A DNA stretch of 64,000 nucleotides from an uncultured cyanobacterium (GTDB lineage: Bacteria; Cyanobacteriota; Cyanobacteriia; Cyanobacteriales; Nostocaceae): positions 4,544,001 through 4,608,000 of the forward strand of contig OY970166.1 of assembly GCA_963706595.1 (NCBI GenBank), given 5' to 3'. Position 1 is the first letter of the stretch. Each line of letters begins with the position of its first letter. The position numbers and the translations under genes were made by a program. The notes beneath the pieces were generated by a model. The model was not told where the DNA came from. It ran no database searches and saw only the letters and a program-made list of their open reading frames with translations. This document shows, piece after piece, positions 30,621-44,325 of this stretch.

Positions 30621-30977
30621 ATGAGCTGGACTAAAGTTCTTGCAGCTGATGCACTTGCGCCAAATGGCAGACAAGTGGTAAAAGTTGGCACACGAAAAAT
30701 TCTGCTTGTCAACCACGAAAGTCAACTTTATGCTGTCGATAATACCTGCCCTCATTTAAAAATGCCCATGAAAAATGGGAAAATTACCGAAAGTGGGGCA
30801 ATTGTTTGTCCTATACATCGTAGTGCTTTTGACTTAAGTACTGGGGAAGTACAAGACTGGTGTCCTTGGCCGCCTGTTGTAGGTAAAGTACTTTCAAAGA
30901 TTTCACCGGAGAAGAAACTACCAGTGTTCCCTGTGCGTGTGGAAGAAGGTAGTATTTGGATTGATTTAGAGGAATAG
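30621..30977 (+). CDS. Rieske [2Fe-2S] ferredoxin-like protein
   Basis: CPH...CPIH ligands. Confidence 0.92.
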   Translation: MSWTKVLAADALAPNGRQVVKVGTRKILLVNHESQLYAVDNTCPHLKMPMKNGKITESGAIVCPIHRSAFDLSTGEVQDWCPWPPVVGKVLSKISPEKKLPVFPVRVEEGSIWIDLEE

Positions 30978-31162
30978 TAGCCTCTAGTAAAAGAGGCAGG
31001 GGAGCAGGGTGTGGGGGGCAGGGGGGAAGACTGAGACGGAGCTTGTACCCCTTCCCCTCTGCCTCTTCGGTGAGGCTAGCAAAAGCGATCGCTTGCCCTC
31101 TTTCCCTTCTAAGCCAGTAAATTTAGTCATCACATCAGGTTGCTATAGTGAATCCCCAATAG

Positions 31163-31381
31163 TCAATCAGCAGACTTAGCAGTTTTTATACCCTCAAGCT
31201 TCTCTATCCGGTAATTCTGGATTTCATTCTGCGCCACCACTTCACTTCTAAGTAATTTGATTTCAGATGTCATATCAGAAACACGGTTGCCCATACTAAA
31301 ACCACCAGTAATCAAATAGAGTCCTGATTGGGTGGTTATGGTCAAGACTGTGATCAGCATGGCTAATCGTTCGGCGGTCAT
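31163..31381 (-). CDS. Small hydrophobic plus coiled-coil protein of the element
   Basis: 72 aa; hydrophobic N-half, coiled-coil C-half; overlaps the stop of the upstream gene by 4 bp. Confidence 0.7.
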   Translation of the reverse strand: MTAERLAMLITVLTITTQSGLYLITGGFSMGNRVSDMTSEIKLLRSEVVAQNEIQNYRIEKLEGIKTAKSAD

Positions 31382-31701
31382 GGTAAAACCTTTTTAATTA
31401 TTAAGCTGGTTCTTGCCAGGTAAAAATTAGGGAAGAATTGCAGCTTAAATTTACCCGGCTGGGGAAAATCAAAGAACTGGTCGCCAAACCTCAAAATTTG
31501 AGAATTGGCAACCGGCTTATTTGGTAAGTCCCACAAAATTTGCTCAATCCTGCCAGCACTTTTGTAATTTCTGGTAGGTCGAGCCTTGAGAACAACAATT
31601 AATTTGCTCTCATCTTCAGTAAATAAATATGGAATGAGTACAGAATTTAATGGTTTTAAATCAAATCGATACTCATTACCAAACACGAACTGAGTTTCCA
31701 T
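31378..31701 (-). CDS. Hypothetical protein of the element
   Basis: 107 aa; abuts both neighbours in a compact operon. Confidence 0.75.
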   Translation of the reverse strand: METQFVFGNEYRFDLKPLNSVLIPYLFTEDESKLIVVLKARPTRNYKSAGRIEQILWDLPNKPVANSQILRFGDQFFDFPQPGKFKLQFFPNFYLARTSLIIKKVLP

Positions 31702-32118
31702 TTACTTTTTAGCAAGTGAATAAGTTCTACCATGCGGCGAGACGAAACTAGTAGGCTTTTTACTTGCGTTTCCCAAGAATTTCTTAATACTACTAATGGT
31801 AGCGCTGGCAGGAACGGGGACACTTAAGTATTTAACTGCCGTTCCCTTTTTGCTAGCTGCCGATGAATTAGTTCCAGGTAAAGGAACTTTAATGCGTTTA
31901 GCGCCAACGCTCCCTCGAACAGCAATCGTTGACTGTTTTTTTGAGCCTTTAGCTGCCTTTCTAGTAACAGTTGCGTCAGGGACGATTTTAAAGCCCAGTT
32001 TTTCAGCTACAGACCGCAGCATATAAACGTATACCGATTTCGCCCCTTGCCCTCGTCCTTGTCCGGATTCAAATAAAACCGTTGCTCGTGGTCCAATCTT
32101 TTTTCGTTGTGTTGCCAT
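31702..32118 (-). CDS. Highly basic (Lys/Arg-rich) protein, possibly DNA-binding
   Basis: 138 aa, rich in K/R/S/A; GGAG RBS upstream. Confidence 0.75.
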   Translation of the reverse strand: MATQRKKIGPRATVLFESGQGRGQGAKSVYVYMLRSVAEKLGFKIVPDATVTRKAAKGSKKQSTIAVRGSVGAKRIKVPLPGTNSSAASKKGTAVKYLSVPVPASATISSIKKFLGNASKKPTSFVSPHGRTYSLAKK

Positions 32119-32147
32119 TCAATTGCTCCAATGCTTAGTAATGGTTT

Positions 32148-33167
32148 TTAGAGATAATCAATTGCGATGATCACAACGTCACCATTGCCGGCGGCTTCAG
32201 AGGTAAAAGGAATATTTGCGCTGATAGTGGCGACTCCAGCTTCCAGGTCGAATTGGACCTGAACGTTGTCCGGCTGGGAATCAGTGGGAACCACAAGTTT
32301 TTCACTAGCAGCCAACAAAGTAGAAATTTCAATGAAGGCTTCCATGATAGTACTAGACTTTAGATCACCGCCGCCATTGACAAAACCAGAATAAGTAGAA
32401 CCCAAGTAATCTTGTGCAACAATTTTGGTAGAACCATCTGTTTGTGCAGTTGCAATAATAGGAATTGTTGCTGCAACTGAAATAGTTCCAGTGTCGAACG
32501 AAACGGTGGTAGCTAGGTTTCTTCGTGGGGTTAGTCCTGGGTTAGCTCCATTCCGAGCTTGTTCTGCCGCATCCATAGCCCTGGCCACTTCAAAGAATGC
32601 CGATGGAATTTGTGTAGCGTTTAAAGTTCCCGCAGTTCCTGGGTCAAATGTACTCATTCGTTCCTCGCTGTAAAAAATGTAGTAACCGTATTTGTAATCA
32701 GTTGTAGCCCGGAATTGTCCCAAATTGGCGGGGACAAACCAATCTAGATTCTTTGGGCTTAAGGTCGAAGAACCCACCGCAGTTAAAGAGACTGAACCGG
32801 GAATAAATAACTTATTCTGCCGAAATACTAAATTAAATGCGGATTTCGAGAAAAAATCTTGAATTGGTGGTGGTACATTATCAATTACTTCCTGCCAGTC
32901 AATGCTTGCAGTTTTTCCATTGGGGAATGTAATCGATGGGGCAGACTGGCTTTTGTTAGAACTTTTAGTTTTGACTATAGGAGTCTTAGGGAGTAAAATA
33001 TACCAATTTCGTTTCCATTTGTAAGCTATAGCTATCCCTTTCTTTAGCAGTCTCTTGAATAGCTTTAATAAATAAGTGTCTGCAAAATTGGTTATTTTAG
33101 CGAGGTCAGATAATTTAATTGCTAAATGCCCATTGATAACATAAATTTCAAATAGTTCTACCCTCAT
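32148..33167 (-). CDS. Element protein: basic N-terminal part in frame with an internally duplicated, structural-protein-like C-terminal domain (internal start at about 32657)
   Basis: 339-aa ORF; GAGG RBS precedes internal MSTFDPG; two repeats each ending in DYL. Confidence 0.7.
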   Translation of the reverse strand: MRVELFEIYVINGHLAIKLSDLAKITNFADTYLLKLFKRLLKKGIAIAYKWKRNWYILLPKTPIVKTKSSNKSQSAPSITFPNGKTASIDWQEVIDNVPPPIQDFFSKSAFNLVFRQNKLFIPGSVSLTAVGSSTLSPKNLDWFVPANLGQFRATTDYKYGYYIFYSEERMSTFDPGTAGTLNATQIPSAFFEVARAMDAAEQARNGANPGLTPRRNLATTVSFDTGTISVAATIPIIATAQTDGSTKIVAQDYLGSTYSGFVNGGGDLKSSTIMEAFIEISTLLAASEKLVVPTDSQPDNVQVQFDLEAGVATISANIPFTSEAAGNGDVVIIAIDYL

Positions 33168-35920
33168 GATTTCTTTTTATCTTTATCTCTCAAAGACAAA
33201 CTCCAAGTAGGCATATTATCTTTCTGCCCAGTTTTGAAGAAATGCACTCTAACCGGAACTACACGAACTTGTTTGTAGACTCCAGGGCGTTCGCCAATCT
33301 TGGGCGGTTGAATGTCTTTTAGGTATTTAGGGGCAATGTATGCTTTGAAAGCATTAATTACCCTCGTACATTCCGTCTTACTTTTCGCATTGATAATTAC
33401 TTTTGAATTATCATTAAGAACCAGAATTCCTTCAAAGTTTCCTTTTTCATATTGAGGAAATTTAGGCTTGAAATCCTTTCCTTTATTGTAGTGAGGAATT
33501 GTTATAGCCCATCGACTGCGACCAATTTTACCATCTTCAAAAACCTCAGCGTATTGAATGACTAACTGCGGACGCTGAAAAACTCGCACTTGCCACCACT
33601 CAGGAGTCACTAAATAGGAATCTTCATTATTTTTAGCTTCACATAATTTTGTGTTAGCCTTAGCCATCTCGGCATAAGAATTGCGAACTTTATTTATTTC
33701 ATTTCCTGTGGAGGTTGCCAAAACTTTGATTGTTATTTCCTTAGTTTCAGGTGTCCATACACCATCGCTTTCAGTACAAAGAATAGTATCAACTTTTATC
33801 TCTACCCAAGAAATATTAGAGGTGCATCGCTGTACTTGAGTACTAGTTTGATTCACAACATTAGTCAAACTATTGACTTGGTTATTAGTTGCATTGGTAA
33901 CGTTGGTCAGATTAGTGACTTGGTTATTAGTTGCATTGGTAACGTTGGTCAGATTAGTGACTTGGTTATTAGTTGCATTGGTAACGTTGGTCAGATTAGT
34001 GACTTGGTTATTAGTTGCATTGGTAACGTTGGTCAGATTAGTGACTTGGTTATTAGTTGCATTGGTAACGTTGGTCAGATTAGTGACTTGGTTATTCGTT
34101 GCGTTGGTAACGTTGGTCAGATTAGTGACTTGGTTATTAGTTGCATTGGTAACGTTGGTCAGATTAGTGACTTGGTTATTCGTTGCGTTGGTAACATTGG
34201 TCAAGTTGCTGACTTGGTTATTAGTTGCGTTGGTAACATTGGTCAAGTTGGTGACTTGAGTACCAAGTTTTGTAATATTTTGATTTGCATTATTAACTAT
34301 ATTTCCAGTATTTATAACTGTTGGTCTGAGAGCGGTGACAGCACTAGCAGTAGCCAATGAAGTAGTATTTAGTGCCACAGCCTGACCTTGTAAAGCTGCT
34401 ACTTGTCCCTGTAAAGCTGCTACTTGTCCTTGCAAAGCAAATACTTGAGTTGTGACAGGAACGATGGCCGCAGTTTGCGCAACCGTAGCTAGTGGCGATG
34501 CCTGATACCACATATTTAAGCCTTCAGGAAAGCATTTACCATTTGTCATTTCCTGGCATAATGCTTCCTGCATTGCGCTAGGCAATGCGTCTGTTTTTAG
34601 CCGAATATTATTGCTCAATACCTCTACGTTGGTTATTTTTGATTGCAAAACACCCAAAGCACCAAATATACCAGCTAATTCTGCCATATTAAATTTGCCA
34701 TCCTTACCACGCTGACCAGTCAAACCACGCTGACCAGTCAAACCACGTTCTCCAGTCAAACCACGCTGACCAGTCAAACCACGTTCTCCAGTCAAACCAC
34801 GCTGACCAGTCAAACCACGCTGACCAGTCAAACCACGCTGACCAGTCAAACCACGCTGACCAGTCAAACCACGTTCTCCAGTCAAACCACGCTGACCAGT
34901 CAAACCACGCTGACCAGTCAAACCACGTTCTCCAGTCAAACCACGCTGACCAGTCAAACCACGCTGACCAGTCAAACCACGCTGACCAGTCAAACCACGT
35001 TCTCCAGTCAAACCACGCTGACCAGTCAAACCACGTTCTCCAGTCAAACCACGCTGACCAGTCAAACCACGCTGACCAGTCAAACCACGCTGACCAGTCA
35101 AACCACGCTGACCAGTCAAACCACGTTCTCCAGTCAAACCACGCTGACCAGTCAAACCACGCTGACCAGTCAAACCACGTTCTCCAGTCAAACCACGCTG
35201 ACCAGTCAAACCACGCTGACCAGTCAAACCACGCTGACCAGTCAAACCACGTTCTCCAGTCAAACCACGCTGACCAGTCAAACCACGCTGACCAGTCAAA
35301 CCACGTTCTCCAGTCAAACCACGCTGACCAGTCAAACCACGCTGACCAGTCAAACCACGCTGACCAGTCAAACCACGCTGACCAGTCAAACCACGCTGAC
35401 CAGTCAAACCACGCTGACCAGTCAAACCACGTTCCCCCTGAAGTCCTCGCGGTCCGGGGATAGCTTTTGCTCTTAGTGCCGATTCAGCCGTAGCTAATGC
35501 TTGATTGGCAGTATTTTTAATGGGTAAAAGTAATCCCAGCACGCGAGAAATATCAGCCCCAAGCGCTGATAAACCACGCTCTACAGCATCAATTCTCGCC
35601 CCTAGTACTTGCAGTGCTGCAATTGATGCCAAGATTCCCGTAATAGTAAATGCTAATGCGGCGACCTTAGTCGCGGCGGCGGCGGCGGCGGCGGCGGCTC
35701 CCTTGGCGATTGCTTCTATAGCGAGAAATTTTATTGCCAGCCCTGCGATCGCAGCTGCTATTAATTGCTCGGTACGAGGCATGATTAGAGCCTCAGCCCC
35801 GGCTATGGAAGATTGGATAATTTGAGGTTTTTCACTCTTCAGAACATACTTTCCATCCAGGGCGGCGATCGCCGCACTCAAAGCAGCAATTTCGCCCGAT
35901 ATTTCGTTACAAGAACTCAC
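33164..35920 (-). CDS. Collagen-like / coiled-coil fibre protein (spike or tail-fibre-like)
   Basis: Ala-rich hydrophobic N-terminus, 40 x GLTG(Q/E)R, ALQGQVA repeats, about 9 x NQVTNLTNVTNATN, globular basic C-domain. Confidence 0.85.
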   Translation of the reverse strand: MSSCNEISGEIAALSAAIAALDGKYVLKSEKPQIIQSSIAGAEALIMPRTEQLIAAAIAGLAIKFLAIEAIAKGAAAAAAAAATKVAALAFTITGILASIAALQVLGARIDAVERGLSALGADISRVLGLLLPIKNTANQALATAESALRAKAIPGPRGLQGERGLTGQRGLTGQRGLTGQRGLTGQRGLTGQRGLTGQRGLTGERGLTGQRGLTGQRGLTGERGLTGQRGLTGQRGLTGQRGLTGERGLTGQRGLTGQRGLTGERGLTGQRGLTGQRGLTGQRGLTGQRGLTGERGLTGQRGLTGERGLTGQRGLTGQRGLTGQRGLTGERGLTGQRGLTGQRGLTGERGLTGQRGLTGQRGLTGQRGLTGQRGLTGERGLTGQRGLTGERGLTGQRGLTGQRGKDGKFNMAELAGIFGALGVLQSKITNVEVLSNNIRLKTDALPSAMQEALCQEMTNGKCFPEGLNMWYQASPLATVAQTAAIVPVTTQVFALQGQVAALQGQVAALQGQAVALNTTSLATASAVTALRPTVINTGNIVNNANQNITKLGTQVTNLTNVTNATNNQVSNLTNVTNATNNQVTNLTNVTNATNNQVTNLTNVTNATNNQVTNLTNVTNATNNQVTNLTNVTNATNNQVTNLTNVTNATNNQVTNLTNVTNATNNQVTNLTNVTNATNNQVNSLTNVVNQTSTQVQRCTSNISWVEIKVDTILCTESDGVWTPETKEITIKVLATSTGNEINKVRNSYAEMAKANTKLCEAKNNEDSYLVTPEWWQVRVFQRPQLVIQYAEVFEDGKIGRSRWAITIPHYNKGKDFKPKFPQYEKGNFEGILVLNDNSKVIINAKSKTECTRVINAFKAYIAPKYLKDIQPPKIGERPGVYKQVRVVPVRVHFFKTGQKDNMPTWSLSLRDKDKKKS
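33875..34260. repeat. 42-bp coding tandem repeat, about 9 copies
   Basis: GACTTGGTTATTAGTTGCATTGGTAACGTTGGTCAGATTAGT unit, encoding a 14-aa double heptad. Confidence 0.95.
34709..35428. repeat. 18-bp coding tandem repeat, 40 copies (collagen Gly-X-Y)
   Basis: ACGCTGACCAGTCAAACC / ACGTTCTCCAGTCAAACC units; 720 bp. Confidence 0.97.
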
Positions 35921-36277
35921 TCATTTAATCCCCGCGATTTGTGCGCGCAATGCCGACAATTCATTGAAAATACGCTTGCAATCCAAGCAGCAATCGCCGC
36001 AGTCCAGGTTATTAGGCGGGCAAGGCGATTCACACTCTGTACAGCTACCAGAGGTATTTCCGGATATTGGAGCGCTAGTTCTTGCTTCGGATAAGCTCTG
36101 AGTACCGCTCCGATAGTAATACCAATGAGCCACTTGCCGGACTCCATCTACTATCAGATGGTATCCCAGTCCATTGAAGGAGTAAGATGCGGCATATCCA
36201 CAAGCAAAATGCTCGTAATAAGCATCATTATTGACACCTTGTCCTGAAAATCGCCAGCATTTCTTAGCCGCCGCCAT
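35921..36277 (-). CDS. Cys-rich hypothetical protein of the element
   Basis: CTECESPCPPNNLDCGDCCLDC followed by a short coiled coil; translationally coupled to both neighbours. Confidence 0.72.
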   Translation of the reverse strand: MAAAKKCWRFSGQGVNNDAYYEHFACGYAASYSFNGLGYHLIVDGVRQVAHWYYYRSGTQSLSEARTSAPISGNTSGSCTECESPCPPNNLDCGDCCLDCKRIFNELSALRAQIAGIK

Positions 36278-36630
36278 TAGTAATCATTCGGATCGCGAAC
36301 GTTGTCCGTGGATGGTTTCCACAAGTTAATCGTTATGGGGTCGTTTCTGTATTCAATTGCGGGTTCACCCCGTTGGGTGATATTTGAAAATCCATCTTCA
36401 AGCACAATTGACTGCTCAAGATTAGTCTCAAAGTTAGCTGGTGATAAATAAGCTTTAGCACCCAAAACAATACTGACTAAATGTCCTTCAGCTGTTGCCG
36501 TTTCTGGAGTCGTCAACCCAGATGCCACTAACGCACTATCGGGAATGAATAACCCTGCCTCTGGTGCTGGGTGTGTCACCGCTAAACGTACTGCCCCAAT
36601 GCCAAAAATTTGAGGGATGGTTGGTTCCAT
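36277..36630 (-). CDS. Hypothetical protein, first gene of the leftward structural-type operon
   Basis: 117 aa; stop overlaps the next start (TAATG). Confidence 0.75.
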   Translation of the reverse strand: MEPTIPQIFGIGAVRLAVTHPAPEAGLFIPDSALVASGLTTPETATAEGHLVSIVLGAKAYLSPANFETNLEQSIVLEDGFSNITQRGEPAIEYRNDPITINLWKPSTDNVRDPNDY

Positions 36631-36671
36631 GAATCTTTATCAATATTGTTAATACATAATTAATAATTCAA

Positions 36672-36755
36672 TACATCAATGATGTAAACTTCCACTTTTA
36701 TGTAAAACTGGAACAATTATTAATACGCTCAAACTATTGGCACTACTGGGTTTGA
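36672..36755. promoter_or_regulatory. Cluster of inverted repeats upstream of the tyrosine recombinase (candidate res/operator site)
   Basis: TACATCA-a-TGATGTA (36672-36686); TTCCACTTTTA-tg-TAAAACTGGAA (36690-36713); TCAAAC...GTTTGA. Confidence 0.5.
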
Positions 36756-36831
36756 TGGCTACACTAATGATATCTGAAATATCAAATATTCCAGATTAAC
36801 CAATTAGGATGGTTAAAGATGAAGTGATTTT

Positions 36832-37413
36832 ATGAAAAACAACAGGCATGGACAAGCTGAAATTTTAACTAATTCGGAATTTTATAAAATTCGCCAACAC
36901 ATTAAAAGTAAAAAATATAAATTACTTCTTGACCTGGCGTGGTACACGGGGGAGAGGTGGGGCGCAATTACAAAATTAAAAGTTGAAGATGTCTATAATT
37001 CTGATGGTAGCCCTAGATGTGAGATTACTTTTCGTGCTGCCACACGCAAAGCCGCGCCAGACGGAGTAAGAAAAACTAGACAGTTACCAGTTCATACTGT
37101 TCTGGAAGAGTCGTTATTATCCTACAAGCCGGAATTTAACTCTGTTTGGTTGTTCCCGTGTCGGGATGGGTTGAAGCCGATTAGCTTCAAATGGGCAGAT
37201 TTGATTTTTCGCACTGCCGTAGAAAATGCTGGACTAGCCACCAAGGGGATTAGTACCCATAGCACCCGCCGGACTTTCATTACCAAACTGCACAGGCAAG
37301 GCACAGATTTGTACACAATAAAGAAAATTACAGGACACCAAGATTTTAAATCACTAGAAAAATACGTAGAAATTGATTGCGATCGCGTCAAAGGCGCTAT
37401 CAACACATTGTGA
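36832..37413 (+). CDS. Short tyrosine recombinase (catalytic domain only, resolvase-like)
   Basis: TGER, HSTRRT, TGHQ, KY: the R-H-R-H-Y residues are present; 193 aa. Confidence 0.92.
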   Translation: MKNNRHGQAEILTNSEFYKIRQHIKSKKYKLLLDLAWYTGERWGAITKLKVEDVYNSDGSPRCEITFRAATRKAAPDGVRKTRQLPVHTVLEESLLSYKPEFNSVWLFPCRDGLKPISFKWADLIFRTAVENAGLATKGISTHSTRRTFITKLHRQGTDLYTIKKITGHQDFKSLEKYVEIDCDRVKGAINTL

Positions 37414-37495
37414 TATATTTGTACTAGTAAACTGGCTGATAAGATGCACCCCTGAATGAGGAAATATGGTCTAGCGCGTAGACCATACCTTTTTT

Positions 37496-38365
37496 TCAAA
37501 GCTTGTAACCATTCATGCCAAAACCACCGCGAATGAAGTTTTTAATTTCACTCGGCGATTTACCCTGCGCAATCGCACTCTCAACCATCTGCTTTCTATC
37601 AATGGCCATCGGATTTTCATAATTTCCCCCAGGAATATGGATGTGATGAATCCCACGCACATAGTAGCAATACCGGAAATACCAGTGCTTTACACCTGAA
37701 CGCTTAACATAATATTCCTCAACCCATTGGTTATTACGTTGTTCTGGAAGAGTAGGAGTGTGCGGTTGTAAATCTTGTTCTGGAAGTTCTGGAAAAGGAA
37801 GAGTGAGTTCTATAAAATCACCATCGTTAAAGTCTGACTCTTCCAGAACATCGTCCAAAGCACGGGACATCATTTCATCCCGGTCAGGTGGCGGAACTCT
37901 CTCACCTGGGTAAGTTTCATTTATGAACTCAATCGCGTCAAGTTCAGCATCCAAATGGGTGTTGTAGTTGCCCTGGAAAGTTCCACAGAGCAGGTAGTCA
38001 TCGTAGACAGTCCATTGAATTTGGTTGTTAGGTAATTTAAAAAACTTGCAAGTATAACCACGGTAATTCTTCTGCCACCGATGCTTTTCATCAGATGTCG
38101 TAGTGTCTACATTAGGTTCTTCCAGAACACTGAATCCTTCTGGCATCGGAAACCGTGACTGCCAATCACTAAACCGCAATTCAAACTCTGCAAGTGAATC
38201 ACAATCGTCTGGCTCTGGTGGTTCTTGGGAATCGTCGTAAAAAAGTGTGAGTTGACCGTTCTCATCTCTTCCAGAAAACTCAGCGTCTAGTATTACTTCA
38301 TCCCAAAAAGGATCATGAACAGTCTTGACGGTGGTGTACTGCTCAACGTCGAATAATAGTGTCAT
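37496..38365 (-). CDS. Hypothetical acidic protein of the element
   Basis: 289 aa; GQLTLF motif; C-terminal WYFRYCY...HIHIPGGN domain. Confidence 0.75.
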   Translation of the reverse strand: MTLLFDVEQYTTVKTVHDPFWDEVILDAEFSGRDENGQLTLFYDDSQEPPEPDDCDSLAEFELRFSDWQSRFPMPEGFSVLEEPNVDTTTSDEKHRWQKNYRGYTCKFFKLPNNQIQWTVYDDYLLCGTFQGNYNTHLDAELDAIEFINETYPGERVPPPDRDEMMSRALDDVLEESDFNDGDFIELTLPFPELPEQDLQPHTPTLPEQRNNQWVEEYYVKRSGVKHWYFRYCYYVRGIHHIHIPGGNYENPMAIDRKQMVESAIAQGKSPSEIKNFIRGGFGMNGYKL

Positions 38366-38368
38366 TGG

Positions 38369-39256
38369 TTATTGGTTATTGGTTATCAGTCGTTGGGGAT
38401 ATCGCTGCATCATTTCTTTGAGGTCGTGGGGATTACCGTCATTGTCATACACCGTCACCCCTCCTGAAATAGCACTGACAATTCCTTGTTGCCTCGCCCA
38501 ATTGAACCAGATGCTCAATTCAGAAGTCACTGTGTTCTTAGGCTTCTCCCCAGTTTTGCAGCTGTTGATGAATAAGCCTGTGGGATTGCTGCACCACCCT
38601 TCATTAACTGCTTCTTTTACACGAGCTACAGCACTGGCGACATTGCCCCAGTATTTCTTGATTACACCCAAGCAAGGTTCTGGGTTAATCCTCAGTGTTC
38701 TTAATTCAATGCAAACCTGCCCAACTTCAGCTTTAGTAGGCGCTGCGGGTGCAATTACCTCATGCTCTTGTTCAATTTCTTGTTCATGATCATCAATGAA
38801 AGTTTCCTCAACAGCAGTGTTGTTTTCTTTTAAACTACTTAAGTTAGTTTTATATGTTGCGACATTTCCAGCAGGTACTTGTGGAATAATTGGCACGTCT
38901 GTGTGAAATATTTCGCATCGTTGAGAATCTACATCTGGCGCGATTCTTTCAAGATTCAACCTGTACTGACTGGCAGTATCTTTGGGAAAGCAGTGTGACG
39001 GCTGCTCATCCAAAATCCCATCAAAGACCAATTCTTTGATGTGCCGGCTGATGGTTGCCCGGCAGTAACCCAGGATGTCCGCTAGGTCTTCAAAGGTAAC
39101 TCTCACCCATTCGTGCTTGTAGTAAAGTTTGCCGTCAAACCAGGACAAGATAGCCGCCTTGCACTTCTGGCGACGGTTGAATGTGGCTAAAAATTCTCTG
39201 AGAATGTTGATAGGGGTATTAATTTCGCCAAAGGTGGCGGAGGTAAAGTTTGTCAC
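38369..39256 (-). CDS. Putative replication initiator with a winged HTH
   Basis: TFEDLADILGYCRATISRHIKELV..GIL HTH; C-terminal NPTGLFINSCK motif typical of phage/plasmid Rep C-termini; GGAGG RBS before the GTG. Confidence 0.65.
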   Translation of the reverse strand: MTNFTSATFGEINTPINILREFLATFNRRQKCKAAILSWFDGKLYYKHEWVRVTFEDLADILGYCRATISRHIKELVFDGILDEQPSHCFPKDTASQYRLNLERIAPDVDSQRCEIFHTDVPIIPQVPAGNVATYKTNLSSLKENNTAVEETFIDDHEQEIEQEHEVIAPAAPTKAEVGQVCIELRTLRINPEPCLGVIKKYWGNVASAVARVKEAVNEGWCSNPTGLFINSCKTGEKPKNTVTSELSIWFNWARQQGIVSAISGGVTVYDNDGNPHDLKEMMQRYPQRLITNNQ

Positions 39257-39324
39257 TGCTAATACCTCCGTGCTAATTGAGTCGAAAATGTGGGAATACT
39301 CATGAGGTAGCTACTGGAGTTGAG

Positions 39325-39594
39325 ATGGGTGATAAATTTGGTTTAAGCCCCAGTGATGTTGTGTCTATGGATGAAGACAAAAGCATTGTTGGAAGCACGT
39401 TTAAAGTCAAGGAAATGCTTCTTAGCCTAGCCGATAGGTCAATCAACGATGACTTTATTACTCAGTGGATAGGGACAGGAGTAGAGTGTGAGGTTTTGAT
39501 CAGTGGGCAGGACTGGCGGAAGGGCAAAGTGAGAATTTCTCTGGAGTTCATTCCTGACCAGCCACTGTCACCACTTGATGATCTGCGGGAATAA
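39325..39594 (+). CDS. KGK domain protein
   Basis: GVECEVL...WRKGKVRISLEF.PD..SPLDDLR. Confidence 0.88.
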   Translation: MGDKFGLSPSDVVSMDEDKSIVGSTFKVKEMLLSLADRSINDDFITQWIGTGVECEVLISGQDWRKGKVRISLEFIPDQPLSPLDDLRE

Positions 39595-39646
39595 CTGAAA
39601 TAGTCACCACGAAAAAACCGTCCTGACCTGTGGTAGGTGGACGGTT

Positions 39647-39979
39647 CTATTCAGAATCTTGAATTTCGGAAATCTGCTTTAACTCTTCAATTCTTTGTCT
39701 CAGAAGGCTTGCTTGTTGTTCATGATATGCCAGCTGTTTGTCAGCCTCACAAATTAGCTGGCTGAGAAGTTTCCCAGCGATTCCTTCAACCGACTCCCCT
39801 CTGAGGACAGATATATCTGACTTGTGGCTATCTTCTCCACAAGCTCTGATCTGGTAAGTCCCATGCTCTGTGCTAACTCCTGAAAAAGTTCCCAAGCATC
39901 GGGATTCACTTTTAAGCTTACCCCCTTGGTTTCCCGTCCTTTGGGCCGTCCCGTTCTCGCCATAGTAATTGTCCTGCAT
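39647..39979 (-). CDS. Possible overlapping coiled-coil ORF
   Basis: 110-aa ORF with C-terminal coiled coil, overlapping the RHH gene in another frame; start uncertain. Confidence 0.4.
   Translation of the reverse strand: MQDNYYGENGTAQRTGNQGGKLKSESRCLGTFSGVSTEHGTYQIRACGEDSHKSDISVLRGESVEGIAGKLLSQLICEADKQLAYHEQQASLLRQRIEELKQISEIQDSE
39754..39963 (-). CDS. Ribbon-helix-helix (CopG-like) repressor
   Basis: KGVSLKV..DAWELFQELAQSMGLTRSELVEKIA; AGGA RBS. Confidence 0.8.
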   Translation of the reverse strand: MARTGRPKGRETKGVSLKVNPDAWELFQELAQSMGLTRSELVEKIATSQIYLSSEGSRLKESLGNFSAS

Positions 39980-39997
39980 AATATTCTGCTTTTAATT

Positions 39998-40085
39998 ATT
40001 GCATATCCAAAAATCCATTAATTAATATTGACACAGGATATCTGGATATGCAATAGTAAGATTGTTGGATTTTTGGATATCCAAT
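39998..40085. promoter_or_regulatory. Divergent promoter region with operator repeats
   Basis: 20-bp inverted repeat with 19/20 match: ATTGCATATCCAAAAATCCA (39998-40017) / TGGATTTTTGGATATCCAAT (40066-40085); third half-site 40043-40055; TTGACA at 40028. Confidence 0.75.
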
Positions 40086-40427
40086 AGCTCCCACCCCACA
40101 CCGGGGATTACCACACGGAGCAAGCACCCACGCCTAGAACTTGCGTGGAACAACCTTGACCAATGACTAATATCAGCGCTTGCGCTTCACCAAAGCGCTG
40201 CAAACTTGTTCTTTCATGGAGGGAAACTTAGACGACAATCATCAAAAAAACCAGGGATAAACACTCTTTTTTCATTTCCCCAGTAAAGGCTAATTACTGG
40301 GGTTTCTCCCTAACACAAGCCAATTTGTCACTGAATTTATAAGGTTTTCTTGGTGGTGTTGCGGCATCACCAAGTTTCTCATAATGTCTGCGTTAATGTC
40401 TGCATTGCACATATAACCATCAAAACT

Positions 40428-40586
40428 ATGAGCTATAAACAAGCCTCACCCTGGGCTGTCTTTAGAGTAGAAGATTTTGGAAATCTTTTACTAACAAGAT
40501 TCCGCAAGCGTAGCGACGCTGATGAATATGCAAAACTTCTCAGAAACAACACACCCTACAAAATTGAGGTGGTATTCGACGTATGA
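40428..40586 (+). CDS. Small hypothetical protein
   Basis: MSYKQASPWAVFR...RFRKRSDADEY...EVVFDV; ATGA overlap with the next gene. Confidence 0.7.
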   Translation: MSYKQASPWAVFRVEDFGNLLLTRFRKRSDADEYAKLLRNNTPYKIEVVFDV

Positions 40587-40867
40587 CACAAAAATCACTA
40601 TTACCCTACGATGGCAATTACGCTTTAATTCACAAGCGGACGCTACTGGTTAACAGTATGGTTTTGACTGCGATGACAGAATTTATCTCGCAAAATTCAT
40701 CTATCACAAGCGAACAACTAGCTCTACTGTTTGGTGAAACTGCTAATAAAATTGTTGCTGCTATGTCCGATGAAACAGTCAATGCCAACGCTTGCGGCTT
40801 AATTTCAAAGTCCATCATAAACAATGGCGTTTCTTCATTTGTTGAATACCATTCCAGTAAAGAATAA
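40583..40867 (+). CDS. Hypothetical protein
   Basis: 94 aa; GAGG RBS; coupled to neighbours. Confidence 0.65.
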   Translation: MTQKSLLPYDGNYALIHKRTLLVNSMVLTAMTEFISQNSSITSEQLALLFGETANKIVAAMSDETVNANACGLISKSIINNGVSSFVEYHSSKE

Positions 40868-40871
40868 CATC

Positions 40872-41240
40872 ATGAAAATTAAAACTATCACTTATCAACG
40901 AGTTCTCAACCTGGGGAATTATGAAAGCAAGCGGTTAGACATGACTATCGAAGTTGACGCAAATCTTGAATTTGCAGAAGAAGAATGCTCCATCCTCATG
41001 GAATCTGTAGAGCGTAAAATTCGAGAAGAATCTGAGGCTTTAATTCTCAATGAAATTAGAGATGCCAGAAAAAAACTGCGTGAAGTTAACAAGGAAATTG
41101 AAGCGGGTAAGCAACTTTTAGCAGAAATAGGAAAGGAATTAAACCCGGACATCGAGCCAGGACTTTCACCTTATGAAATAGCAGAAATCGACCGTAAAGT
41201 TAGAAAGGAGGCATATCTTAACCCTGACGAAGACTTTTAA
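40872..41240 (+). CDS. Phage-type hypothetical coiled-coil protein
   Basis: MKIKTITYQRVLNLGNYESKRL N-terminus followed by a coiled coil. Confidence 0.75.
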   Translation: MKIKTITYQRVLNLGNYESKRLDMTIEVDANLEFAEEECSILMESVERKIREESEALILNEIRDARKKLREVNKEIEAGKQLLAEIGKELNPDIEPGLSPYEIAEIDRKVRKEAYLNPDEDF

Positions 41241-41319
41241 GATTTAGGCGATCGCACAGTTTGGAGGAGTGCGATCGCTTTTCTTCCTTGCCAGGATAAT
41301 GAAACAAATATAACTTAAA

Positions 41320-41555
41320 ACCGCCTGAACGAGCCGGACTAACTCACCGGCGAAACGTGAGCGCTCACGTCGCGGACTGAGTTCGCAGCACATCAACTTA
41401 GGGCTTTGTTAGTGAATTAAGCTCTTGTGGCTTTCCCATCTTCGTAAGCTCGGTTGATGTGTTTTTGTGTCCCCAGTGTTTGCAGCACTGGAAGCTTTGA
41501 GACTGAATTAGGCTCTTTGGCCTTTGGGTGATTCACAAGCTGTAAGACACAATTC
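41320..41555 (+). ncRNA. IS110 bridge RNA: 5' hairpins, target-binding loop (about 41389-41461), donor-binding loop (about 41466-41551)
   Basis: Two similar stem/internal-loop/stem modules whose variable segments match the element junctions; candidate promoter TTGCCA(41288)-17 bp-TAACTT(41311); ends approximate. Confidence 0.85.
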
Positions 41556-41583
41556 ACACACCTACTCTAAGGATGAAAACTGA

Positions 41584-42771
41584 ATGACTAGAATTGTTGG
41601 GTTGGATGTTTCCAAGTCAAGTGTTTCGTGCTGTCTATTGGAGGAAAAGCCAAGGAATCCAAGAGAATTTTACTATGAATACCCCTTCAAAAAGTTTCAA
41701 AGTGATAAATTTGGATTATTGGCATTAATGGCATTGCGGCCAGAAGTTGCAATTCTTGAACCGACGGGAGTGAATTACTCCAAATTCTGGACAGAACATT
41801 TATCTCGTGCCGGGGTAGAAGTTCGCTTCGTAGGACACAAAGAACTCAGGAGTTACCGCGAAAATCACTTGGGACTGCCAGATAAAGATGATGATGCCGA
41901 CTCGTTGGCGCTGGCTTGTTATCAGTTCGACTATGGAAAAGATTTGAGCCGGTTCGTCCGGGTACGCGATCGCTTAATTTCCCGAACGAGGGAAGCAGTG
42001 CTGCGGCTTAGTCATCTTAACCGAATACAATCCCCCATCATCAACCGCATCCGTCAGGATTTGGCATGGCAGTTCCCAGAAGTTGCGCTTGTCCGTTCAA
42101 TTCGGTGTTCTGGAAGAGTGCCTTTACTTTGGGGATGGCTAGCTGGTCAGCGTGAAAGTAAAAAATATGATCGCATTTACGCCACCACCGCAGGATTAGG
42201 ATTAACCGATTCGGTAAGGTTTCACGCGCAGCGCATTTGTAGCTTACAGGCAGAAGAGCAAATTTTAGAAGATGAACTAGCAGAAATTCTCATAGATGAA
42301 CGGTTCACTCGTTACCGTGATATTTTCGCAAATTTCCAGTTTGGGGAGAGACTGCAAGCTGTGATTCTCTCCCAAATTTACCCCTTAGAAAATTTCTTGG
42401 GTGAGGATGGTAAACCAGAAATCAAAATCCGCAAAGGTAGGAAATCTGGTAAACCAACCAAACGCCACCTGTCACTAAGGCGATTTCAGAAAGCTTTGGG
42501 TGTAGCGCCTTCTCAAGAATCAAGCGGCGATATTTCTAAATCTAAAGTTTCCGGTGGATCGGCTTTGTGCCGTCGCGCCCTTTGGCAGTGGGTTTTTAGT
42601 GCAGTTGAACCTGCCAAACGCCGCACGAATCCCATGTTAAAAGAATTGGGAGAATTTCTTGATACCGAGAAATTAGCAGGCAAACCAGTCAAACTGGTAC
42701 GAATGCGAGTAGCTGTTAAAGCTGTAAAGCTGTTATTTAAAATGTTGACTAGTAACGTTATCAGTCAATAA
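41584..42771 (+). CDS. IS110-family (DEDD) bridge recombinase
   Basis: VGLDVSK (D), LEPTG (E), KDDDAD (D,D), C-terminal domain GVAPSQESSG with the catalytic-type Ser; intact 395 aa. Confidence 0.93.
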   Translation: MTRIVGLDVSKSSVSCCLLEEKPRNPREFYYEYPFKKFQSDKFGLLALMALRPEVAILEPTGVNYSKFWTEHLSRAGVEVRFVGHKELRSYRENHLGLPDKDDDADSLALACYQFDYGKDLSRFVRVRDRLISRTREAVLRLSHLNRIQSPIINRIRQDLAWQFPEVALVRSIRCSGRVPLLWGWLAGQRESKKYDRIYATTAGLGLTDSVRFHAQRICSLQAEEQILEDELAEILIDERFTRYRDIFANFQFGERLQAVILSQIYPLENFLGEDGKPEIKIRKGRKSGKPTKRHLSLRRFQKALGVAPSQESSGDISKSKVSGGSALCRRALWQWVFSAVEPAKRRTNPMLKELGEFLDTEKLAGKPVKLVRMRVAVKAVKLLFKMLTSNVISQ

Positions 42772-42872
42772 CACAATGGTGGCGTAGGGAGTCGGTACAA
42801 TACACGTAACAATTACGCCGCCACTATTTTATTAGACTGAAGATGGCAAAGTTATCAGTGGAAAATTAAATC

Positions 42873-43478
42873 ATGCTCGAAAATCGAGACTATACACTCA
42901 TTATCGACAAAAGCGGTAGTATGGCTACCCCAGATCAGAAAGGTGGTAGAACTAGATGGGTATCAGCACAAGAATCTACCCTAGCCTTAGCGAGTAAGTG
43001 CGAGCAATTTGATCCAGATGGCATCACTGTATATTTATTTTCTGGTAGATTCAAGCGCTACGATAATGTTACAGCCGCTAAAGTAACACAAATCTTTAAA
43101 GAAAATGACCCCTCTGGTTCTACAGATTTAGCAGGTGTGTTGAAACACGCCACGGATGATTACTTTCAACGTAAGAATGCGGGTCAAACGAAGCCCAATG
43201 GTGAAATTATTTTGGTAGTTACTGACGGCGAACCGGATGACCGTAAAGCGGTAATGAAGGTAATTATTGAAGCTTCTCGCCGGATGGATAATGATGAGGA
43301 ACTAGGTATTTCCTTCATTCAAGTTGGTACAGATGCACAAGCTACTCGCTTTCTGAAAGTGTTAGATGATGACCTCCAAGGTGCTGGAGCAAAATTTGAT
43401 ATCTGCGACACAATTACAATGGATGATATGGAGGATTTAAGTTTATCGGAAGTGCTACTAAATGCCATTACGGACTAG
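42873..43478 (+). CDS. Single-domain vWA protein
   Basis: IDKSGSM MIDAS, VTDGEPDD, FLKVLDDDL. Confidence 0.9.
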   Translation: MLENRDYTLIIDKSGSMATPDQKGGRTRWVSAQESTLALASKCEQFDPDGITVYLFSGRFKRYDNVTAAKVTQIFKENDPSGSTDLAGVLKHATDDYFQRKNAGQTKPNGEIILVVTDGEPDDRKAVMKVIIEASRRMDNDEELGISFIQVGTDAQATRFLKVLDDDLQGAGAKFDICDTITMDDMEDLSLSEVLLNAITD

Positions 43479-43574
43479 CGACCGCTGCGCGGAAGTCAAA
43501 AGTTAAAAGTCAAAAGTTAAAAGAACTTTTTGAAATGTATCCCTATTTACGCCGTGAATTACTAGCTTAAAAGC

Positions 43575-43982
43575 ATGGATTCTCTTGATAAGCTGCTAGA
43601 TGAACTCAAAGCTGAATATGATCAAACCAAACCCGCAGCATCACAACCCCAGAAAAATTCAGCCAAACCATTTACCCCACAACCACCAAAATCGTTATCT
43701 TTAGTCGATAGCCTTTTGGCAGAAGTTGGGGCTGATTTTGCAGCACAAGATGAAGTGGAGGAGTTTAAAAAACAGCAAGAATTAGCACAGGAAAAAAATC
43801 GACAAGCCCAAATCAAAGCCCAACAAATAGCAGCTTTGAAAGTTGAAGCAGAAACATGGTTGAAAAAATTAGATCCGTTTTCTTCAGAAGGACTTTGGTT
43901 TGAAAGGTTTGCTGAAAGTTACCCTTCAAAATTAGAGGCGGCGATTGAATATTTACAAAGCAACGAATCAACTCAAACTTAA
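43575..43982 (+). CDS. Slr1339-like (salt-stress) protein
   Basis: WLKKLDPFSSEGLWFERFAESYPSKLEAAIEYL C-terminus. Confidence 0.7.
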   Translation: MDSLDKLLDELKAEYDQTKPAASQPQKNSAKPFTPQPPKSLSLVDSLLAEVGADFAAQDEVEEFKKQQELAQEKNRQAQIKAQQIAALKVEAETWLKKLDPFSSEGLWFERFAESYPSKLEAAIEYLQSNESTQT

Positions 43983-43986
43983 CTTG

Positions 43987-44325
43987 CTAGTCGTTGATTG
44001 ACAAAAAGTGTTCAACAGCCCATTTATGCATTGCATAAAGAATTGGGATCAGACTTTTTCCCAAACTTGTCAATGAGTATTCTACCTTTGGGGGGATTTG
44101 TGGATAAACTTCACGATGTACAATACCGTCTTCTTCCATTTCTCGGAGTTGCTGAGTCAGCATTTTTTGGGTAATTCCCGGTAAGCCTCGCTGCAATTCC
44201 CCAAAGCGTTTGGTCTGTGAAATTAATTCTCTAATAATTAAAACTTTCCAACGCCCACCAATTACCTTTAATGTAGTTTCAACTTCGCAAGTGAGCCTGA
44301 TGTCGGTTTTTGCTTCAGCTTTCAT
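43987..44325 (-). CDS. HxlR-family transcriptional regulator
   Basis: [35 protein letters not shown]. Confidence 0.93.

Follow-up and report, generated by a model that had tools for sequence, protein, structure and literature searches.

What is the guide RNA of an IS110-type recombinase doing some ten kilobases inside a mobile element, and how could it be given a defined beginning there? The question is raised by a 64,000-nt stretch of contig OY970166.1 (positions 4,544,001 to 4,608,000, forward strand; GenBank assembly GCA_963706595.1) from an uncultured cyanobacterium of the Nostocaceae, which as a whole is called the window below. Classical IS110 insertion sequences measure about 1.2-1.6 kb, lack passenger genes and carry their guide RNA in the non-coding end beside the border. 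The element in the window spans 11,689 bp, holds about 14 cargo frames, and has its RNA 10.2 kb from the left border. We consider it likely that this bridge RNA and the adjacent recombinase integrate the 11.7-kb element, and that a hammerhead ribozyme directly in front of the RNA releases it from a longer transcript. The parts of this reading differ in strength. That 41372 to about 41551 is a two-loop bridge RNA for the IS110-type recombinase encoded at 41584-42771, and that the element borders are as given in Table 1, is together almost certain, while the ribozyme and especially its role in processing are held with the lesser degrees of confidence stated where they are discussed.

The borders were fixed by comparison with 10 same-genus genomes. 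In all 10 the element is absent, and its two chromosomal flanks, one on the side of a Rieske-protein gene and the other on that of a vWA-domain gene, are separated by about 100-280 nt; the insertion site between them is ATAGT-GAA-GATGG, and homology with the relatives resumes at 42842, at the right target flank. One empty site (L090; labels of this form denote loci, and those beginning with G denote genomes) reads GGTTGCTATAGTGAAGATGGCAAAGTTATCAG, i.e. the two window flanks fused at a single GAA. The empty sites and the junctions together define the element as 31153-42841, with the start of the RNA 10.2 kb from the left border. A preliminary description of this DNA, made from the letters alone, had placed the bridge RNA about 10 kb inside the element, and this placement holds, with both junctions of the 11.7-kb element matching the guides.

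Durrant et al. 2024 (PMC11208160) describe a geometry in which each left guide base-pairs to the bottom strand and each right guide to the top one, all four containing the core. Applied to the window guides, this predicts a right junction of AGACTGAA plus GATGG and a left junction of TAGTGAA plus TC(A)CCC. The right junction (42834-42848) has 1 mismatch in 15 to this prediction. The left junction (31145-31160) is ATAGTGAA/TCCCCAAT; a search allowing up to 3 mismatches returned the guide itself only, the true site being missed because of a 1-nt bulge, and the site was found by reading 30940-31420. Guide by guide, the left donor guide agrees with the right end at 8/8 positions, the right target guide with the right flank at 5/5 and the left target guide with the left flank at 7/8. 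A compact insertion sequence with its left end near 41303 (ATAATGAA/ACAAAT) was considered as well; it is ruled out by the empty sites, and there is no TCCCCA at that place. At the same chromosomal site in another genome (L086, G006), about 40 nt before the homology with the right flank, stands CTACTAGACTGAA/GATGGCAAAG, a terminus resembling the right end with no element behind it; lying inside a different 289-nt spacer, it looks like the scar of an element lost or decayed at the same target.

The bridge RNA is laid out as 5' hairpin, target-binding loop, middle hairpin and donor-binding loop, and its two loop units share one form: GCUUUG, 8 nt, UU, a short ARGC/GCYU hairpin, 12-13 nt, and AAGC. 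Folded as a single sequence, the region gives z = -2.2, and 4 of 200 shuffles fold equally well; since this signal is modest, the case for the RNA rests on comparison with relatives. For this purpose 80 homologous loci were fetched with 1.5-kb flanks. The same two-loop architecture is found upstream of the homologous recombinase in related loci, and a strict pattern picked out the two loops together in 62 of 81 sources (the window and 61 of the 80 loci), failing on one loop or the other in the remaining 19. Among the 62, the first loop has a constant scaffold, within which the 6 nt before GAA and the 5 nt before UUC vary from locus to locus, while the strands of the second loop are nearly constant, AGA[C/G]UGAA and GGGUGAUUC. 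Variable guides in the first loop with near-constant guides in the second are characteristic of a target loop with a donor loop after it. GAA (or UUC) is present as the core in all four guide strands of every parsed RNA.

Covariation (RNAalifold, 72-sequence alignment) supports the stems of both loops. The outer stem of loop 1 shows compensatory changes, e.g. GC in 34 and AU in 31 sequences at one pair, as does the closing stem of loop 2 (CG 45, UA 27). The preliminary description had pointed to a compensatory change between the two inner stems of the window itself, AAGC/GCTT versus AGGC/GCCT; the inner stem of the second loop also varies within the family (GC 62, AU 10). Its proposed check on the upstream regions of homologues, RNAfold with covariance, finds the stems kept and covarying and the target guides hypervariable, every string that it quoted is present at its place in the window, and its identification of a bridge RNA with the target loop preceding the donor loop is borne out by guide variability, covariation and junction matches. 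All the sequence-level marks of a bridge RNA are thus found together, namely an IS110-type neighbour, variable target and conserved donor loops, a flank match, an end match and a common core. The RNA is predicted to bind the recombinase and direct recombination. Its 5' hairpin is about 11 nt shorter in the window than in most relatives, and the same as in the L106 copy.

Guides and flanks were compared in the 55 loci with an exact copy of the left donor guide downstream of the open reading frame, using 1000 guide shuffles as control. The right flank is predicted at 5/5 positions by the locus's own guide in 38 of these 55 loci and at 4/5 in 8 more; with shuffled guides the mean is 0.95, and no more than 5 loci match in any of the 1000 shuffles. 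The predicted right-flank 5-mers are all distinct among the 55. Positions 6-7 past the core sit in a constant U[C/U] scaffold and agree with the flank at 10/58 and 23/58 candidate sites, near the expectation from base composition. An earlier impression that the right guides look long therefore does not hold, as tracking of the target extends just 5 nt past the core, and what remains of the 12-13 nt is constant scaffold and the complement of the core.

Left junctions were sought up to 20 kb upstream for five further elements, and in four of these (L004, L028, L029 and L073) the junction was found 12.6-16 kb upstream of the recombinase gene, each agreeing at 8-9 of 9 positions with its own left guide and continuing with TCCCCA. 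Counting the window, a left-guide match followed by TCCCCA is seen in 5/5 elements where the left end was found. Related elements with guide-matched outer junctions span about 14-17 kb. The five bases before GAA agree with the guide across elements, bar the one mismatch in the window; the sixth agrees in 1/5. In L028 and L073, GAA is the only sequence common to both junctions, so the core is GAA and not TGAA; the suggestion of a shared core of GAA or TGAA was right that it is longer than 2 nt, with GAA invariant in both loops, and wrong only in counting the leading T. We conclude that the target loop reads 5 nt to the left and 5 nt to the right of a 3-nt GAA core, and that the donor loop reads the right end AGACT and the left end TCCCCA, with one U of the RNA bulged. 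That single bulged U in the pairing with TCCCCA explains why the donor right strand is 1 nt longer than the target right strand; the extra nucleotide had been taken for a bulge from the outset, and the left ends agree, reading TCCCCA in 5/5 elements against a guide complement of TCACCC.

No sign of a handshake guide was found in the donor loop, where the 2 nt after UUC pair with the left-target positions in 33 and 22 of 60 cases, against shuffled means of 32.5 and 20.4. For the corresponding 2 nt of the target loop, pairing with right-end bases is possible in 55 and 53 of 60 cases; as these partners are constant, this pairing reflects conservation and not covariation. (i) The fifth further element, L013, has a degenerate left end: its left terminus (in L096, at about 1480-1510) lacks TCCCCA and has a flank unlike the left guide, its cargo is syntenic with that of the window over 15 kb, and an exact 9-nt guide match followed by TCC lies 5 kb upstream of its RNA. 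This element may have been rearranged or immobilised. (ii) The L073 element has a second GGGTGATTC inside its cargo, 6 kb upstream of the bridge RNA (L099, about 13534 in recombinase orientation), which could be chance or the remnant of a second donor loop.

The recombinase itself belongs with the IS110 family by profile and by fold. It scores 532 bits with NCBIfam NF051857 (IS110 family transposase, full-length second model; cut-off 180), while the classical model NF033542 remains below its cut-off; the Pfam matches are weak, with Transposase_20 above and DEDD_Tnp_IS110 just below cut-off. Its predicted fold has a pLDDT (predicted local distance difference test) of 85.8, and the top 10 PDB matches to it are all IS621 and ISCro4 chains (best E 1.9e-8, 17-19% identity). 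A sequence search of the PDB with a 20-homologue profile matched no chain, so the relation to IS621 is visible at the level of fold only. The 120 best homologues listed, the window protein aside, are 62-87% identical, and those with names come from filamentous cyanobacteria.

In the alignment of upstream regions, conservation does not stop at the 5' end of the bridge RNA. It extends through ACCGC-CUGAUGA-(helix)-GAAA-(helix)-GUC-GCGG, a string that corresponds to the hammerhead consensus with stem I open. The preliminary description had reported three small hairpins ahead of the loops; all three are present (41333-41351, 41356-41369 and 41372-41386), but only the third, the 5' hairpin, belongs to the bridge RNA, the first two being stems II and III of the hammerhead. 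We built a covariance model, R1, from 48 sequences and searched it against the window, the 80 loci, the 5.57-Mb genome of origin and 40 relatives. R1 has a single match in the window and a single one in each of 74 of the 80 loci, invariably on the strand of the recombinase and immediately ahead of the bridge RNA, and none elsewhere in 373 kb. Among the 6 loci with no R1 match, some have little or no upstream sequence in their contig.

The match is to a type I hammerhead (RF00163) in its three helices, the core C-U-G-A-N-G-A / G-A-A-A, the A15.1-U16.1 pair, cleavage after H17 and the open stem I. In a 75-sequence alignment, 88.6% of cells pair, compared with 31.7-37.4% when partners are slid by 1-3 columns and 71.8% in shuffled alignments. 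Stem III is paired in 99.1% of cells; 4 of its 6 pairs show two-sided changes, with as many as five pair types at a position, and in stem II the same kind of change is seen in 4 of the 5 pairs. Stem I is conserved and 92% paired, and is only 4-5 pairs long. Beside these varying helices, the core positions C3-U4-G5-A6-N7-G8-A9, G12-A13-A14 and A15.1-U16.1 are invariant or nearly so in both the 48- and the 75-sequence alignments, and the triplet at the cleavage site, GUC in the window, is either GUC or GUA in every relative aligned. Loop II has five bases that can pair with the loop of the hairpin that follows (87% paired; UA 34 and CG 16 at one pair). In the window this pseudoknot would join GAGUU of the 5' hairpin to AACUC of loop II, with the sole AU of the family at another pair; two of the pseudoknot bases also covary with the stem of the bridge RNA 5' hairpin. 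Natural hammerheads are known in which loop II forms a pseudoknot with the strand past stem I. That the family as a whole carries a hammerhead is, on this evidence, very likely. Self-cleavage after GUC is predicted to create the 5' end of the bridge RNA at 41372.

The association reaches beyond the close family. In the 40 relatives R1 gave 9 matches in 5 genomes, 8 of which are followed by a recombinase homologue, in four cases one only 33-42% identical to that of the window. These four (L101, L105, L108 and L109, in G005 and G012) have the same hammerhead, and in the three of them examined for loops (L101, L108 and L109) the two-loop RNA after it is built on another scaffold (GCGUU..GCGC), again with a GAA core. 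A hammerhead before recombinases so divergent implies that the fusion is older than the window's family. For the ninth match (L107, on contig 5 of G012), the surrounding 1.5 kb contains no homologue of the recombinase, which makes it an orphan copy or one that serves something else.

How might such an RNA be transcribed? In IS621 the RNA lies within about 190 nt of left end (Durrant et al. 2024); at 10.2 kb from the left end, a promoter formed at the circle junction cannot drive the bridge RNA of the window. In the 69 loci with enough upstream sequence, we looked for an open frame of at least 50 codons ending no more than 12 nt from the ribozyme core, and found one, the end of the upstream cargo gene, in 49, which leaves no room for a promoter in those loci; in 16 loci the UGA of the ribozyme core is itself the stop codon of the upstream frame. 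The window is an exception, with a spacer of 85 nt between stop codon and core that most relatives lack. We propose that the bridge RNA would be transcribed as the tail of a cargo operon, and that the hammerhead would cut after GUC, freeing the bridge RNA with a defined 5' end at 41372 and the recombinase message behind it. Such a processing role is probable, though we put it below the existence of the ribozyme. The sequence GCGG is both the 3' strand of stem I and the base of the bridge RNA 5' hairpin, so that the ribozyme fold and the mature fold would be alternatives; with stem I and the pseudoknot on one side and the mature 5' hairpin on the other excluding each other, cleavage could act as an irreversible switch to the fold that binds the recombinase. 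Extended to the whole clade, the proposal is of virus- or plasmid-like elements of 12-17 kb in filamentous cyanobacteria that use a bridge recombinase as integrase and express their bridge RNA at the 3' end of the cargo operon, from which a hammerhead would excise guide RNA and recombinase message; we favour this general form by a small measure.

A number of observations weigh against the combined reading. The core of the window copy, CUGAACGA, reads CUGA-AC-GA, with 1 nt more than CUGANGA between A6 and G8, although the other core positions are intact; of its closest relatives, L100 combines an identical stem II with CUGAAGA, and the core of L106 is CUGAUGA. A core similar to the longer one of the window, CUGAAUGA, is carried by L005 and L102. 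The window copy may cleave poorly, and that it is active at all seems to us possible but rather doubtful. Rfam gave no match at 40000-44000, and with E as high as 10 it still reported no hammerhead in the window; on 12 loci with E up to 1 it returned no hammerhead, only an unrelated tRNA and a chance match. The Rfam model Hammerhead_1 (RF00163) aligns to the best member, L040, over all 45 positions, at 12.9 bits against a gathering score of 34. Four loci (L028, L066, L069 and L071) have C-C-G-A in place of C-U-G-A in the core, and this U4-to-C change should impair a hammerhead. In about 16 loci (L003, L031, L032, L035, L037, L039, L045-L047, L049, L050, L054, L056, L058, L060 and L062), 30-45 extra nt between A9 of the core and stem II form one or two hairpins containing GCGATCGC, which may be a small repeat element or an elaborated stem II. 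Given the altered cores and the hairpin inserts, not all hammerhead copies need be active. In the window a terminator-like hairpin and a promoter-like site separate the last cargo gene from the ribozyme; read-through may be limited in this copy, and it may depend on a local promoter. The hairpin, whose loop exceeds 8 nt, was not called by the terminator scan. Furthermore, one of the five guide positions of the left target guide disagrees with the actual site, and only one copy of the element, by DNA and by protein, is present in its genome, so that recent mobility is not demonstrated. Transcription, cleavage and RNA ends are all read by us from sequence, the one sequencing run listed containing next to none of this stretch.

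The alternative that fares best keeps the bridge RNA but has it transcribed from its own promoter, TTGCCA-17-TAACTT, with the hairpins before it as 5' structure of no catalytic role. This promoter was put forward in the preliminary description and is present as written, its -35 matching at 5/6 with a spacing of 17 nt; the hairpin at 41247-41278, which parts the cargo gene from the RNA, would make a local start useful, and the extra nucleotide in the window ribozyme core also speaks for it. Its -10, however, matches at only 3/6, the site is below the threshold of the promoter scan and unlisted there, it is not conserved across loci, and the spacer that holds it is absent from most relatives, the upstream frame ending within 12 nt of the core in the 49 loci counted above. 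A start about 7 nt past this -10 would land at about 41322-41325, inside stem I, and a purely structural role leaves unexplained why an invariant hammerhead core stands beside freely covarying stems. We regard this alternative as unlikely, and the promoter as proposed was not upheld.

Less probable again is a hammerhead-shaped motif that does not cleave, serving as a conserved protein-binding or folding domain of a longer bridge RNA. The sub-threshold Rfam scores, the retention of copies with core changes or large insertions, and a stem I of just 4-5 pairs would all fit such a domain, but it has to be set against catalytic positions that are all kept in order and spacing while the helices vary in compensatory fashion, a cleavage triplet that is always GUC or GUA, a pseudoknot of a kind known in natural hammerheads, and persistence of the motif before bridge RNAs of a different scaffold with recombinases 33-42% identical. 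We can give hardly any credence to a third possibility, that the island was integrated by its own 193-aa tyrosine recombinase (conserved in 4 of 5 related elements) or by another route, with bridge RNA and recombinase as a small insertion sequence at its edge, for which a weak core-like site ATAATGAA (41296-41303, just upstream of the RNA) could be adduced, since both outer junctions of the 11.7-kb insertion match the guides and share GAA, guide-matched outer junctions recur in four other elements of 14-17 kb, the inner left-end candidate has neither TCCCCA nor empty-site support, and no left junction was found within up to 1.3 kb upstream of the bridge RNA in the 62 parsed sources.

With integration by the bridge RNA and recombinase, and release of the guide by the hammerhead, as the preferred reading, the system can be compared with those already described. 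It resembles IS621 and ISCro4 (PDB 8WT6, 9T56) in having a target loop before a donor loop, the RNA just upstream of the recombinase gene, and a common recombinase fold. As in IS621 (PMC11208160), the left guides carry the top-strand sequence and the right guides its complement, with the core in all four; the size of the target read-out is similar too, 5 + 3 + 5 nt in the window and 9 programmable positions plus the CT core in IS621. The differences from IS621 are a GAA core of 3 nt in place of CT, a donor right guide that needs a bulged U, the distance of the RNA from the left end, about 10 kb of cargo, a hammerhead preceding the RNA, and a protein only 17-19% identical that has no sequence-level match in the PDB. 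In short, the system works like IS621 but departs from compact IS110 elements in its 3-nt core, bulged donor guide, 10-kb cargo and 5' hammerhead.

The ribozyme departs from RF00163 in its score (12.9 versus 34 bits), its short stem I, the pseudoknot of loop II with the loop of the next hairpin and, in the window, the extra core nucleotide; the hairpin that partners the pseudoknot is also the first element of the RNA that the ribozyme would release. Hammerhead-guide-HDV cassettes (HDV, hepatitis delta virus) are in use for CRISPR. Engineered ribozyme-flanked guides of this type follow the same principle, a self-cleaving ribozyme giving a guide RNA a defined end in any transcript; they are laboratory constructs, while the ribozyme of the window occurs in nature, is placed 5' of the guide and has base pairs in common with the guide's first hairpin. 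For seekRNA, an HDV ribozyme was placed after the guide (Siddiquee et al. 2024, PMC11187229). IStrons, IS605-type elements with a group I intron (PMC13521648), likewise combine an RNA-guided protein and a ribozyme in one non-coding stretch; the IStron ribozyme splices the element from host mRNA, whereas the small endonucleolytic ribozyme considered here would trim a guide RNA. In the literature searched we found no report of a natural fusion of hammerhead and bridge RNA, and the ribozymes in the two founding papers on bridge and seek RNA are engineered HDV ribozymes. A preprint (10.64898/2026.10.21.760802) surveys longer and variant bridge RNAs at scale, so guide diversity as such is not new; it also describes an unannotated divergent hammerhead cluster (1,533,398) of 152 loci, treated apart from its bridge RNAs and with genomic context not given in the main text, which may or may not be the present one.

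If the preferred reading is true, these loci hold a natural counterpart of the ribozyme-flanked guide cassettes of genome engineering, and the first natural small self-cleaving ribozyme with a defined job in guide RNA maturation. To our knowledge, no function has been established for most bacterial hammerheads; where cleavage would yield a recognisable guide RNA, as in this clade, hammerhead function can be put directly to the test. Bridge recombinases are under development as programmable tools for the insertion of large DNA. Here 12-17 kb of cargo is moved naturally with the guide RNA far from the border, that is, with no dependence on a circle-junction promoter, and the guide geometry (GAA core, 5 + 5 flanks, bulged donor guide) comes with dozens of natural guide/target pairs that could be used for training. 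A small hammerhead of natural origin that fixes where the guide begins suggests a ready-made way to express bridge RNAs from long or polymerase II transcripts.

The cargo bears out that these elements are a family of virus- or plasmid-like integrative elements, not compact insertion sequences. Gene order and several cargo proteins are common to the window element and its relatives, and for the last three frames ahead of the RNA, many loci have homologues at the corresponding place upstream of the recombinase. The best-conserved cargo gene encodes the 193-aa tyrosine recombinase, 59-69% identical in 4 of 5 related elements; one possibility for its presence beside a bridge recombinase is dimer resolution of a circular form. 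The 918-aa collagen-repeat protein has homologues in three related elements, a 295-aa protein has a weak replication-initiator-like match, a 339-aa protein obtained no usable match from Protein Atlas, and the remaining cargo consists of small proteins of unfamiliar family.

Table 1. Features of the integrative element, its bridge RNA and the preceding hammerhead in window coordinates, with left junctions of related elements (a slash marks a cleavage site or junction, or separates two strands)
Feature	Position	Strand	Remark
Left target flank and core ATAGT-GAA, host DNA	31145-31152	+	7/8 match to left target guide TTAGTGAA; joined to right flank in empty sites
Integrative element, 11,689 bp including right-hand GAA	31153-42841	+	Absent from 10/10 same-genus genomes
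Left end terminus TCCCCA (right donor sequence)	31153-31158	+	Pairs with donor right guide U-GGG(U)GA, one U bulged
Cargo, about 14 open reading frames	31163-41240	both	Pfam and PHROGs
Collagen-repeat, tail-fibre-like protein, 918 aa	33164-35920	-	Phage tail-fibre families matched mainly via collagen triple-helix repeats
Tyrosine recombinase, 193 aa	36832-37413	+	Phage_integrase, weakly Xer-like
Terminator-like hairpin on GCGATCGC palindromes with T-rich run	41247-41278	+	Read from sequence; inside 85-nt spacer
Candidate promoter TTGCCA-17-TAACTT	41288-41316	+	Present as written
Type I hammerhead ribozyme	41320-41371	+	R1 59.1 bits, E 1.5e-10; sole match in own genome
Stem I 5' strand ACCGC	41320-41324	+	
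Hammerhead core CUGA(A)CGA	41325-41332	+	
Stem II	41333-41351	+	
Hammerhead core GAAA	41352-41355	+	
Stem III	41356-41369	+	
UC	41370-41371	+	
Predicted self-cleavage site GUC/G	41371-41372	+	Position H17 of hammerhead consensus
5' hairpin of bridge RNA, GCGGACUGAGUUCGC	41372-41386	+	First 4 bases are the 3' strand of hammerhead stem I
Target-binding loop domain	41389-41461	+	Guide positions hypervariable between loci, scaffold conserved
Loop 1 outer stem CACATCAAC / GTTGATGTG	41389-41397 / 41453-41461	+	Read from sequence
Loop 1 scaffold GGGCTTTG	41401-41408	+	Read from sequence
Loop 1 left target guide TTAGTGAA	41409-41416	+	Read from sequence
Loop 1 inner hairpin AAGC..GCTT	41419-41433	+	Read from sequence
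Loop 1 right strand TCCCATCTTCGT	41434-41445	+	Read from sequence
Donor-binding loop domain	41466-41551	+	Guides conserved in family; closing stem covaries
Loop 2 outer stem TGTGTC / GACACA	41466-41471 / 41546-41551	+	Read from sequence
Middle hairpin inside donor domain	41473-41491	+	
Loop 2 left donor guide AGACTGAA	41500-41507	+	Identical to last 8 nt of element
Loop 2 inner hairpin AGGC..GCCT	41510-41523	+	Read from sequence
Loop 2 right strand TTGGGTGATTCAC	41524-41536	+	Read from sequence
Bridge recombinase, 395 aa	41584-42771	+	NF051857 532 bits; starts 33 nt past second loop unit
Right end terminus and core AGACT-GAA	42834-42841	+	8/8 identical to left donor guide; 63 nt past recombinase stop codon
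Right target flank GATGGCA, host DNA	42842-42848	+	First 5 nt are the reverse complement of the variable part of the right target guide
Left junction of L004, TAGCGTGAA/TCCCCAAT			Element of 14,360 bp
Left junction of L028 and L029, TGTACAGAA/TCCCCACT			
Left junction of L073, TATAAGGAA/TCCCCAGA			

Two minor features of the surroundings may be added. Inside the element, TTACTGAAGATGAGA at 31608-31622 on the minus strand is an inverted sequence that resembles the target site at 13/15 positions, for which the chance mean is 1.6 per window. The host spacer at 30989-31072, between the Rieske gene and the element, contains a G-rich short repeat that has many copies in the same genome and in related ones, and that forms long tandem arrays in G002.

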